From an uncultured Desulfosarcina sp. (GTDB lineage Bacteria; Desulfobacterota; Desulfobacteria; Desulfobacterales; Desulfosarcinaceae), in contig CAXXWQ010000004.1 of the NCBI GenBank assembly GCA_963674945.2, positions 1,280,001-1,344,000 of the forward strand: a DNA stretch of 64,000 nucleotides, given 5' to 3'. Both the position numbers and the translations under genes were made by a program. Position 1 is the first letter of the stretch. Every line of letters begins with the position of its first letter. The notes under the pieces were generated by a model. That model did no database searches and had not been told where the DNA came from. It worked only from the letters and a program-made list of their open reading frames with translations. This document shows, in pieces, positions 58,223 through 63,964 of the stretch.

Positions 58223-58271
58223 TGGAGGCGGCAACCAGATTCGAACTGGTGAATGGAGGTTTTGCAGACCT
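58223..58271 (-). tRNA. 3' half of tRNA-Cys(GCA), an att-site duplication and not a complete tRNA
   Basis: minus strand AGGTCT-GCA-AAACCTCCATTCACCAGTTCGAATCTGGTTGCCGCCTCCA gives anticodon arm, T arm and CCA; the 5' acceptor strand and D arm are absent. Confidence 0.88.
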
Positions 58272-58658
58272 TTATTGACAGCCTGTAAGGGGTTGTTTTT
58301 TCAAGCTGTTTTTATCTCCAGAATTTTGCCTGTTGTGGATTTTGATGGGACTTGGTCAAGAGCTTTCACGGCGTTCAATTTATGGTCCGGCGATGGGTGT
58401 TGATACCGCATGGCCATCATTGTTGTCTTGTGCCCCATTATTTCCATTATGGTCTTCAAGTCTGCCCCTGCCATACCAAGTCTGCTTCCGAATGTGTGGC
58501 GTAGGTCATGAAACCGGAAACGGACTGTTTTATTCCCTTCCTTTCTTGTCAATTTGGCCTCTTTTACGGCATACCAAAAGGCATTCGTCAACTGGGTAAG
58601 TTTCCTACCTTTCGAAGTGCAAAACACATAATCGGATTCACTGACATCTAAACGTCTT

Positions 58659-60314
58659 CCTGTTTCCGTGGCACAAAACCTGATTAAAACACTATAACCA
58701 ATTGATAAAACATATATATTATGGTAATATTAGGGCACTAAACGCTCACTTCGGAGGTGAAATCAATGCGGCGTCCGATCACCATAAAACACGAGATGGA
58801 AAAACTTGCCAGTCATAGCGGATTGATCAATATCGGCGCATTACTTGATGCGATAAATTTCAGGTTCCGTTTCGAAAAGATCAACGGCGTCCATTGTGTA
58901 GACCCGAAAATTTCTCATGGTGACATTTTAGCTTCGATGATTGCTCTCATGAGTATTGGTAAACCTGATTACGATGCGATCGAGATTTTTCGTGAGAAGC
59001 AAGAATTTTTCAACAAGGCCATTGGCAATCGTGCATGCCCGTCAAGCCCGACATTGCGTCAGCGAATCGATTTGATCGGCAACCAAGCCGATAAGCTGAT
59101 TAAGGATGCAGGCGTTGATTTGGTTCGATCCTGCGCTCCGGCGATTTCACCCATCCAAACCAGTGCGGGTGATTTCCTTCCTTTGGATATGGATGTGAGT
59201 CCGTTTGACAACTCAAAGACTCAAAAGGAAGGCGTTTCCAGAACCTACAAAGGCACGGATGGCTTCGCTCCGATCTTTGCCTACCTGGGCACCGAGGGGT
59301 ATCTGGTGAATCTTGAGTTCAGAGAAGGAAAACAACACTGCCAGAAAAACACCCCCGAATTTATCAACGCCACCTTGGATTATGCCAGGCAAATTACCGA
59401 TCAGCCTATTTTGATGAGGTTGGATTCAGGAAACGACAGTCAAGACAACTTTCCTGACGATTCACGAAAGAATGTCCACTTTATCATCAAACGCAATTTG
59501 CGTAGAGAATCTGTTCAAAAGTGGGTTGATCTGGCAAAAAAATCCGGCAAGCAACAGCATTGCCGCTCAGGAAAATGTGTATGGATCGGAAAGACGATTG
59601 AAGACATCAACGGCAATCCATTGCGCTACCCAATCATCTTTGAGGTTACCGAAAGGCATACCAAAAAGGGCCAAGTACTGCTGTTCCCCGAGTATCAGAT
59701 CGATACCTATTGGTGCAGCCTCGCACAGTTGCCACCGGATGAGGTGATTCGACTTTATCACGATCACGGTACCAGCGAGCAGTTTCACTCCGAACTCAAA
59801 TCCGACATGGGCCTGGAGCGCTTGCCGAGCGGTCATTTTTCCACCAATAGCTTGATTCTTCATTTGGCGATGCTGACGTACAACATGCTACGGATTATCG
59901 GACAAATCAGCATCGAAGAGAGTGATCCGACTGAATTGCCCGGTATACGCCGGAAGAAAGTTACCCGGCGTCGAATCCGGACAGTCATGCAGGACTTGAT
60001 GTATATGGCCGGTCGATTAGTAACCAGAAGTAGAAAATGGTACATATCCTTTGGCCAACTCAATCCATTTTCCAAACTGATGGATCGGATTTATCTTCGT
60101 CTGAATTTGCTTTCCGCTATGAAGTAGCTATAATTTTTAAAAGAACAATTTTACAGGCATTTGCTTGGTGATTTGCTATGGCTAAAGAATGAGAAACAGG
60201 AGCAAAATTCCTTCGAAATTTGAAAATAGTGAGAAAAATTATCAACAAATGATGGTGTGTGAGGCAATCGCCCCGCGCCAATCCTAACAGCAAAAATTAG
60301 GCCACTGATTCAGG
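58659..60314 (+). mobile_element. IS1380-family insertion sequence (1656 bp)
   Basis: imperfect IRs CCTGTTTCCGTGGC / GCCACTGATTCAGG (11 of 14 match); 5-bp target duplication GTCTT at 58654-58658 and 60315-60319. Confidence 0.9.
58757..60127 (+). CDS. IS1380-family DDE transposase
   Basis: LDMD, RLDSG, YHDHGTSEQFHSELK, LPSGHFSTN motifs. Confidence 0.9.
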   Translation: MKSMRRPITIKHEMEKLASHSGLINIGALLDAINFRFRFEKINGVHCVDPKISHGDILASMIALMSIGKPDYDAIEIFREKQEFFNKAIGNRACPSSPTLRQRIDLIGNQADKLIKDAGVDLVRSCAPAISPIQTSAGDFLPLDMDVSPFDNSKTQKEGVSRTYKGTDGFAPIFAYLGTEGYLVNLEFREGKQHCQKNTPEFINATLDYARQITDQPILMRLDSGNDSQDNFPDDSRKNVHFIIKRNLRRESVQKWVDLAKKSGKQQHCRSGKCVWIGKTIEDINGNPLRYPIIFEVTERHTKKGQVLLFPEYQIDTYWCSLAQLPPDEVIRLYHDHGTSEQFHSELKSDMGLERLPSGHFSTNSLILHLAMLTYNMLRIIGQISIEESDPTELPGIRRKKVTRRRIRTVMQDLMYMAGRLVTRSRKWYISFGQLNPFSKLMDRIYLRLNLLSAMK

Positions 60315-61150
60315 GTCTTTGTAAAACCTCCTTCAGCGTATCATTTAAAGGGACTTTTCTATTTTCGTGATTTTTGGTATCGGTGGCCAGCAAAAACCTA
60401 CCAGAGAGGTTTACATGGGCCTTCTTGAGATTGAATATTTCCGCTTGCCGTAGGCCGCTGTGAAGAGCCACCATTACCAAATCTCTCAAATATTTCTTTT
60501 TACCTCGTTGTGGGCTTTTTGCGCATTGATCAAGAAACCGTTTTTCCTGCCCCGGTGTCAATACCCACATCTTTTCATTATCTTCTTTCAGCAGCTTCAC
60601 ACCAGAAATAGGATTCGATCTTAAATATCCCCACTGAACGGCCATGTTCAGCATATTTCGAAGTGTGGCCACGTCCCTATTAATTGTTGCCGGAGCCTTC
60701 CCATCATCCCTTCTGAACTTCTTGTACCGCTCGACATCCAACGAGTAAATCGATGTCAAGAGCTTCCCCTTGAAATGAGGCGTCAACATGGTTATCGATT
60801 CCCCATTTCGCCTGGATGAGTTTGGCTTTTTATTCACCTTTGCATGTTCAAGGTATTTTTCGGCAAAGGTTTCAAATAAAATCCGTTTTGCCTTCTGTTG
60901 ATGCTTTCCTTCTTTAACTTCGGTCCTGAATTTACGATCCTCCTCTTTCGCAAAGGTTTTACTGACTTCCCCATGCGCTTTGGTGTACCTCCCTCCATTG
61001 TACCAAAAATCAGAATACCAGCTGTTACCACGTCTATACATGCTGCCTCCTTTTTTTCTAACGCCTGCCGCCCCAGGCGACCGCCTTGTAGGTTTGAACA
61101 CCCTGTAACTATGTATCAAAGAATTGTTTGGGAAGGACGGTGACTTATTT

Positions 61151-63097: not shown

Positions 63098-63122
63098 ATG
63101 GGGTGGTAAAACACCACCCCAT
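63098..63122 (-). terminator. hairpin downstream of the 63138-63494 ORF
   Basis: ATGGGGTGGT-AAAAC-ACCACCCCAT perfect 10-bp stem. Confidence 0.55.
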
Positions 63123-63137
63123 ACTACCGTTGTCGGA

Positions 63138-63494
63138 TCAACCAAGCAGATCTTTTAACCTACGGACAGAATTGAAGATTACCTCTTTTGGGTGTTCTTC
63201 GAGTCCACCCGCCAGGTTGGAAAGTTCGGAATAAGTTTTATAGATCTCCGAACCAATTGGACTTTTTAAAGGCACGGTTTCAGCATCCTCGATGGATTTC
63301 ACAGGCAACCTGTTTTCGTACTCATGTTTGTAAAACTCCCAAAGACCATCGCTTAAGGGTTTCAATAGGGGAGCCAAGCTTACGCTTTCGTCTAATCGTT
63401 CGTCAGCACAAAGGACGATTGAATATAGGCTATAGGCATAGCGTCTTATCTCATCCAAATTATCTTCAGGCGATAATAGCTTTTCAAACATCAC
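63138..63494 (-). CDS. hypothetical protein
   Basis: 118 aa; GTGA overlap with the upstream ORF, RBS GGGGGTGG. Confidence 0.6.
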   Translation of the reverse strand: MMFEKLLSPEDNLDEIRRYAYSLYSIVLCADERLDESVSLAPLLKPLSDGLWEFYKHEYENRLPVKSIEDAETVPLKSPIGSEIYKTYSELSNLAGGLEEHPKEVIFNSVRRLKDLLG

Positions 63495-63682
63495 GCCACC
63501 CCCTTTCCAACACGGATCATGAAGGCAACCGTAGAGCGATATTTCGGACTTTTCGGATCTTCGACGTTGAACAGGTATAGAATACAGCCGAGAGTCTCTG
63601 TTTCGTCCTGAGAACCGATGTATTCAAGGAAAAATGGTGCAATGTTGTGGAGCAGGGACAGGTTGAAAAGAATTTGCTGCAT
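63491..63682 (-). CDS. small protein at the icd/kil position downstream of the C4 RNA
   Basis: ATG at 63682 with a strong RBS AAGGAGG that overlaps a C4 target. Confidence 0.6.
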   Translation of the reverse strand: MQQILFNLSLLHNIAPFFLEYIGSQDETETLGCILYLFNVEDPKSPKYRSTVAFMIRVGKGVA

Positions 63683-63743
63683 GACGGAACCTCCTTGTGG
63701 TGTGTGGTGAAGGATTACCGCCATCTTTGTCTCCAAACAAAAA

Positions 63744-63820
63744 TGGCGGCGCACACACGGTTGGAGAACCGGCCCACAAGGATACCGGCGAGCCCGAAGG
63801 CTCCCGTATATGCACCGCCA
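63744..63820 (-). ncRNA. C4-type antisense RNA (P1 C4 / P4 CI-like)
   Basis: 77 nt; closing stem UGGCGGUGCAUAUACGG/CCGUGUGUGCGCCGCCA, GAGCC-UUCG-GGCUC hairpin, CCUUGUGG loop and UCUCCAA junction, each complementary to two flanking targets. Confidence 0.85.
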
Positions 63821-63935
63821 AAGTATAAACATAGTACAGAAACAGAAAAACGCCATACTATGAATTGGGCGCTTATGCACCTTGTGGAAAATCCGGTCTC
63901 CAAACCGGGCAACGGAATTTGCCGTTACAGATATA

Positions 63936-63964
63936 TTCATAGTCGATGATAGAAACCGCGTCAA
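63936..63964 (-). promoter_or_regulatory. putative sigma70 promoter of the C4 operon
   Basis: TTGACG-17 bp-TATGAA. Confidence 0.5.

Follow-up and report, generated by a model that had tools for sequence, protein, structure and literature searches.

Near one end of a 64-kb stretch of an uncultured Desulfosarcina genome, a compact structured RNA lies on the minus strand just ahead of two small ORFs, and the locus raises the question of which RNA family it belongs to and which genes it would control. The whole 64,000-nt stretch is called the window here, and coordinates given without a contig or locus name refer to it. The original prediction read the locus as a complete antisense-RNA immunity switch of the type known from phages P1, P7 and P4. 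We found that it is a complete C4 cassette, a member of the known C4 antisense-RNA family, and we regard it as highly probable that this cassette, within a satellite-like island, represses ORF63 and ORF118 by pairing of the RNA with its own leader.

The C4 RNA and its target words

The RNA and the elements next to it are as follows (a′ and b′ are the loop words; a1, b1, a2 and b2 are the targets).

63744..63820 (minus strand): C4 antisense RNA, assigned from Rfam and its fold, with b′ CCTTGTGG at 63781-63774 and a′ TCTCCAA at 63767-63761.
63718..63749 (minus strand): a2 hairpin, with a2 TTGGAGA at 63736-63730; it excludes the base of the C4 closing stem.
63880..63887 (minus strand): target b1 CCACAAGG, whose final GG is able to pair with GCGCC at 63872-63868 in a small hairpin.
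63690..63700 (minus strand): target b2 CCACAAGG at 63700-63693, over the ORF63 Shine-Dalgarno sequence AAGGAGG, read from the sequence.

In a covariance-model scan, the Rfam C4 model RF01695 matched 63825-63739 on the minus strand over its full length (model positions 1-87), with 70.2 bits against a cut-off of 45 and an E-value of 7.8e-13. The 77-nt RNA folded at -50.8 kcal/mol (z -6.9), a stability that none of 200 shuffled sequences equalled, and it showed the C4 architecture of a long closing stem, two inner hairpins and a′ and b′ in unpaired regions, with the slight exception that the minimum-free-energy structure draws b′ in a weak 2-bp pairing. Hence the proposed 77-nt RNA at 63820-63744 with two exposed words is borne out by its fold and its Rfam score. 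The downstream hairpin at 63749-63718, which had been expected to compete with the closing stem, has a z-score of -7.0 and uses the same CCGCCA as that stem; it is also present in the consensus fold of eight cassettes, in which 19 of the 57 pairs across the full leader showed two-sided changes. The mechanism of C4-type RNAs has been known since 1990 and the family is in Rfam, so that the switch as such is ordinary. PMC2864571 records C4 in Proteobacteria and phages, and our literature search, whose coverage excludes most subscription journals, gave no paper on C4 cassettes in sulfate reducers.

Each complement proposed upstream and downstream of the RNA was confirmed on the minus strand. TTGGAGA is found at a1 (63903-63897) and a2, CCACAAGG has just two minus-strand copies in the 64 kb, namely b1 and b2, and all four targets are perfect complements of the RNA loops. 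The spaced pair TTGGAGA-N5..40-CCACAAGG occurs four times in the 7.08-Mb genome: twice as the targets, once as the RNA's own loops read from the plus strand and once at an unrelated site. As had been predicted, the last target lies on the ribosome-binding site of the ORF at 63682: the start region of ORF63 reads CCACAAGGAGG, 7 nt and then the ATG at 63682, b2 overlaps its AAGGAGG, and this overlap recurs in related cassettes. With RF01695 above its cut-off and all target words in place, the a1/b1-C4-a2/b2 layout stands.

Moreover, loops and targets change together across related cassettes. From 36 fetched loci, two that the pattern did not parse and two duplicates were dropped, leaving 32 distinct cassettes (two further listed C4 matches came without a locus and lay outside this set), which carry 20 different a′ and 28 different b′ words. 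Mean complementary runs for cognate versus non-cognate pairs were 7.06 versus 4.37 nt for a1, 6.53 versus 4.86 nt for b1, 6.94 versus 4.29 nt for a2 and 7.72 versus 4.87 nt for b2. None of 20,000 permutations reached any cognate mean, a count that overstates independence and gives no clean probability because 15 of the 32 cassettes come from one genus. A few cassettes have lost a2 or b2 (L034, L038, L015 and L022, with runs of 3-5 nt). None of the four target words was found within 400 nt upstream of three ORF63 paralogues elsewhere in the genome, where trans-targets were sought.

Leader, putative promoter and predicted terminator

Upstream of the C4 RNA, the leader contains the following elements.

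63936..63964 (minus strand): putative sigma70 promoter, TTGACG (63964-63959), 17 nt, TATGAA (63941-63936), read from the sequence.
63893..63928 (minus strand): two-hairpin leader, c4-a1b1/IsrK/seqA-like by sub-cut-off Rfam alignments; a1 (63903-63897) spans the loop of the second hairpin.
63846..63872 (minus strand): predicted terminator-like hairpin, GCGCC...GGCGT followed by five U.
63830..63862 (minus strand): predicted competing hairpin CATAGTATGG/CTGTACTATG, which takes the 3′ strand of the terminator and loops out the U-run.

The putative promoter, TTGACG-17-TATGAA, was not listed by a consensus promoter scan; TTGAC is found at equal distance before the leader in seven of eight same-genus cassettes, and TTGAT in the eighth. 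The best Rfam match of the leader was isrK, full length with an E-value of 1.2e-7 and 44.9 bits, below the cut-off of 50. Of the Rfam C4 families that the original prediction had named for checking, C4 itself scored above its cut-off, and c4-a1b1 (RF03163) aligned both leader hairpins with 25.4 bits (E 0.002), below its cut-off of 46.7. Within the eight cassettes, two-sided changes were found in four of the seven pairs of the first leader hairpin, and the small hairpin between the GG of b1 and GCGCC was paired in 38 of 40 cells.

The predicted pair of terminator and anti-terminator between b1 and C4 was, like the putative promoter, absent from the original prediction. The terminator-like stem was paired in 35 of 38 cells of the eight cassettes, with small variation, and the competing hairpin in 51 of 66 cells, versus 18-43 of 65-67 when it was slid by 1-3 columns. 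A simple terminator scan, limited to loops of 3-8 nt, did not call the 63846..63872 hairpin, and these figures do not rest on the automated terminator finder, which often chose the wrong U-run. Blocking a1 and b1 in silico raised the terminator pairing in the window from about 0.8 to about 0.98, and blocking b1 raised it in three of seven relatives (0.0 to 0.67, 0.18 to 1.0 and 0.48 to 1.0); the effect was small in the window and in the other four relatives, where pairing was already 0.8-0.98 without C4. The folding model thus predicts that b1 may couple C4 binding to termination. The Shine-Dalgarno sequence of ORF63 is predicted to be only 0.3-0.4 unpaired even without C4.

The host island and related cassettes

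The cassette lies in an island of 12.25 kb (10.6 kb without its IS element) with 44% GC between flanks of 53-56%, delimited and interrupted by the following features.

58223..58271 (minus strand): att core, in which 49 bp of the 3′ part of tRNA-Cys are repeated perfectly; the second copy, at G000:C4:1350424-1350472, is 6.4 kb past the window end.
58301..61119 (minus strand): tyrosine integrase split by an IS1380-type element, with Pfam Phage_integrase on both halves.
about 58659-60314: the IS1380-type element, with DDE_Tnp_1_4 between the integrase halves; the genome holds 26 near-identical copies.

On the minus strand the order is unknown ORFs, a weak small-terminase (TerS) match (E 3.5e-4), a P4-family primase (TIGR01613, 187 bits, cut-off 108.7), an excisionase, ORFs of 210, 96 and 231 aa, the C4 cassette, ORF63, ORF118, two integron cassettes and the split integrase. 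The island is a satellite-like element integrated in tRNA-Cys. It shares the P4-family primase, integrase and tRNA att site of P4-like satellites. Compared with PICI-like satellites (∼10 kb, with int, xis, primase and small terminase and no full virion set), it measures 10.6 kb without the IS and its TerS match is weak; a sister island carries an S49 protease. The genes of P4 include psu, sid and delta, and the island proteins gave no family match to psu, sid, delta or kil. Among phage genomes, none matched the DNA of the cassette. In DNA contigs, the depth of the island was about equal to that of its flanks, and one apparent skip inside the att repeat is uninformative.

The two integron cassettes (63017-61155, minus strand) encode an HNH protein with HNH_repeat domains (62836-62114) and a 244-aa unknown protein (61947-61213), and have matching core sites, attC hairpins at 62098-61968 and 61218-61155 and a promoter, TTGACA-17-TATTCT, ahead of them. 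The stretch 63030-62830 resembles several other sites of the genome, and a host integron integrase is encoded at G000:C3:2206329; the host integrase may have loaded this part of the island as a defence hotspot.

Because the cassette is downstream of the primase, it would work as a stand-alone operon like immI of P1, not like P4; gene order thus suggests an accessory operon below the replication genes. The a and b boxes and the processing of the c4 RNA are features of P1 immI, and in P1/P7 immI (c4, icd, ant1/2) b2 likewise overlaps the ribosome-binding site of the first ORF. The two cassettes also agree in the family and length of the RNA, in having a1/b1 before it and a2/b2 after it, in a small first ORF to which the second would be coupled, and in forming an operon apart from the replication genes. 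In contrast, immI has icd and ant, which are not found here, and P1/P7 is a phage-plasmid, whereas this cassette is in a 12-kb integrated island of Desulfobacteria. According to PMC4825925, the P4 CI RNA with seqA/seqC is processed from a leader and guards the replication operon; the present cassette is also in a satellite-like element with a P4-family primase, and its leader-derived RNA is predicted to cause premature termination, but it lies downstream of the primase, whereas CI RNA precedes the replication operon. Of the term ‘immunity switch’, therefore, the C4 reading with a1/b1 and a2/b2 is kept, and the analogy with P4 was overstated, since the cassette is below the primase and no replication gene is below the cassette.

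Six of 65 genomes at the family level and 14 of 151 at the class level had C4 matches, the source genome included. The first ORF after the 33 other cassettes was a Bro-N antirepressor in 13 (12 from one genus) and an integrase in one, and had no Pfam match in 19; none of the seven same-genus first ORFs had any Pfam match. Four genomes of one genus (G099, G100, G106 and G181) have 2-8 C4 matches each, mostly before Bro-N genes and with varied loop words, and at L022:1632-2795 a tyrosine integrase is the first gene below the cassette. Another C4 cassette of the source genome (L004:1380-3084; G000:C3:2421.8-2423.6 kb) uses other words and precedes at least seven overlapping small ORFs, of which six were scanned and gave no Pfam match; one of these ORFs shares 57% identity with the ORF that comes first in sister cassettes L009/L011. 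In both cassettes of this genome, the loops complement their own targets over 7-9 nt and those of the other cassette over 4-6 nt, so that cross-reaction is unlikely.

Sister islands in genomes G044 and G031 have the 231-aa gene, then C4, then different small ORFs, and the sister island of G017 (L042/L065) retains the upstream genes without C4, which indicates that the cassette is dispensable for such elements. Three islands (L063:8500-18600, L064:5100-15300 and L065:4500-13500) form a tRNA-flanked family of ∼10 kb with the 231-aa gene common to all; one of them carries the S49 protease, and one has a 334-aa ORF that is capsid-like by eye and has no NCBIfam match.

ORF63, ORF118 and the proposed regulation

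The cassette is followed by two overlapping ORFs.

63491..63682 (minus strand): ORF63, which belongs to a family of unannotated phage early proteins and is predicted to form one helix and three strands.
63138..63494 (minus strand): ORF118, 117 aa from its ATG, a near-orphan whose start overlaps the ORF63 stop.
63100..63120 (minus strand): GC-rich hairpin without a U-tail just past ORF118, read from the sequence and not called a terminator by the scan; a possible operon end.

Neither ORF had been recognised as icd, ant or kil, and indeed no icd, ant, kil or Ash model matched either of them. The further suggestion that the effectors may be new is right in that they have no such identity, but ORF63 is not unique: a profile search placed it in a family of 56 clusters, whose named sources include Desulfosarcina, with proteins of 58-63 aa that are all named hypothetical protein save for one unrelated-looking label. 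ORF63 and its family had no Pfam (LPD models included), NCBIfam, PHROG or PDB family match, and single-sequence searches with ORF63 and ORF118 gave just the query proteins. The structure model of ORF63 (pLDDT 81.5, pTM 0.56) combines one helix with three strands; no Foldseek match reached E<=0.001 in the PDB or viral libraries, and the ESM Atlas gave no usable match for ORF63 or ORF118. ORF118, for which database searches returned itself alone, is weakly like the second ORF of sister cassettes (8 and 17 of 2000 shuffles, and 4 of 2000 with a profile, for a pair chosen by eye), which is a hint of homology.

Five of 65 genomes at the family level had homologues of ORF63, mostly within early regions of prophages, and the source genome has three paralogues at 48-53% identity. 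Two of these open the early operons of Mu-like prophages, with a repressor-like gene running divergently on one side and ner-like and transposase-like genes downstream (labels by inspection), and the third is divergent from a type I-F cas operon. Judged from this gene context, ORF63 homologues sit in temperate-phage early operons. The Mu-like prophages, one apparently complete (G000:C4:1770.6-1804 kb) and the other truncated (1814-1824 kb), have unrelated repressor N-termini. At G000:C3:809123-822700, a type I-F CRISPR array of 104 repeats and its cas genes are immediately beside the phage- or ICE-like region headed by the third paralogue. An anti-CRISPR reading of ORF63 is not supported, as 123 spacers gave no match to the island, to the Mu-like prophages or to the other loci fetched, with locus L049 excluded because it contains part of the array; a single spacer matched a two-copy chromosomal site with one mismatch and the PAM CA instead of CC.

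C4 was nearby in none of 13 ORF63-family loci (one locus maybe redundant), and thus the pairing of C4 with ORF63 here would be a recruitment. In a search of the phylum, the ORF63 domain was detected in 4 of 301 genomes, and one match maps to about residues 660-710 of a protein of 3,946 aa that also has strawberry-notch helicase, PBECR1 and LPD38 domains. The domain order of this protein looks like polyvalent-protein architecture, and the link of ORF63 to such proteins is that single match of 35.9 bits. As described in PMC5512222, polyvalent-protein domains also occur in solo form; the ORF63 domain is likewise found alone in phage early regions, and differs in having no Pfam LPD match.

We propose, by analogy with P1 and P4 for promoter use, processing, termination, translational block and coupling, that the predicted sigma70 promoter at 63964 would give one transcript of a1, b1, the terminator, C4, a2, b2 with the ribosome-binding site, ORF63 and ORF118. 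On first entry, when mature C4 is absent, the end of b1 and the downstream hairpin would hold the terminator open, and the ORF63 and ORF118 proteins would be produced briefly. The 77-nt C4 would then be excised from the transcript. Its loops may bind a1/b1, freeing GCGCC and closing the terminator, and may bind a2/b2, covering the ribosome-binding site of ORF63 and silencing ORF118 by coupling. The expected outcome is a self-limiting early pulse, tied to the cassette's own words.

An improbable alternative is activation of the IsrK type, in which the short terminated leader (63930-63846) would open the C4 structure in trans and allow translation of the ORFs, C4 being part of an mRNA switch rather than a repressor. 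The isrK match of the leader speaks for it, as do a sister leader that scores 50, at the cut-off, and the ability of a1/b1 to pair in cis with a′/b′ in a long transcript. In PMC4825925, Gifsy-1 IsrK works by such activation, acting via translated orf45, with anrP; the present leader is similar in its two hairpins, its terminator and a score near the isrK cut-off (44.9 versus 50), but has no conserved ORF through the RNA, and an AnrP-like gene is absent. IsrK acts through translated orf45, whereas frames are open through C4 in 13, 13 and 10 of 34 cassettes with no preferred frame, and the second covarying target set, on the ribosome-binding site, fits repression by C4 rather than activation. 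A long ORF through C4 (161-177 aa, in frame with ORF63, Ash/orf45-like) was also rejected: its start lies ahead of the predicted promoter, the 34 cassettes show no frame preference and there is no Ash match.

That C4 provides immunity of the P4 type, silencing replication genes of the island or of an incoming sister element with the two ORFs incidental, would agree with the P4-family primase, the excisionase and the tRNA att sites, and the distinct words of different cassettes would permit exclusion groups; we nevertheless hold this to be extremely improbable, as the primase, xis and terS-like genes are upstream of the cassette and the spaced pair of a and b targets is nowhere else in the island. 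The broken integrase, split by the IS1380-type element, means that the island may be a relic, and ORF118 is without clear relatives, but a once-functional cassette now without consequence is very improbable too, since its four targets are perfect complements, ORF63 and ORF118 are both intact, ORF63 retains the family-invariant F18, E27, F38 and D42, and the IS copy shares 99.7-100% identity with the 25 others, a sign of recent insertion. Repression of ORF63 and ORF118 by C4 is the reading that we retain.

For the proteins, there is about an even chance that they are early phage-type factors modulating the host or a helper, in place of icd-ant of P1. We consider it rather unlikely, yet worth stating, that C4 serves the satellites of sulfate reducers as a plug-in timer for exchangeable cargo, here a captured phage early protein (a new small domain that is also built into polyvalent proteins), pulsed on entry to disarm host defence or to disturb temperate helpers with the same protein heading their early operon. 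The cassettes provide a natural collection of loop/target pairs that probably do not cross-react, with two such pairs in a single genome, and a predicted coupling between b1 and the terminator. In the position that an antirepressor takes in other cassettes, this one has a member of an unnamed, conserved family of phage early proteins, and the ORF63 family is a plausible candidate for a new function in host takeover or counter-defence.
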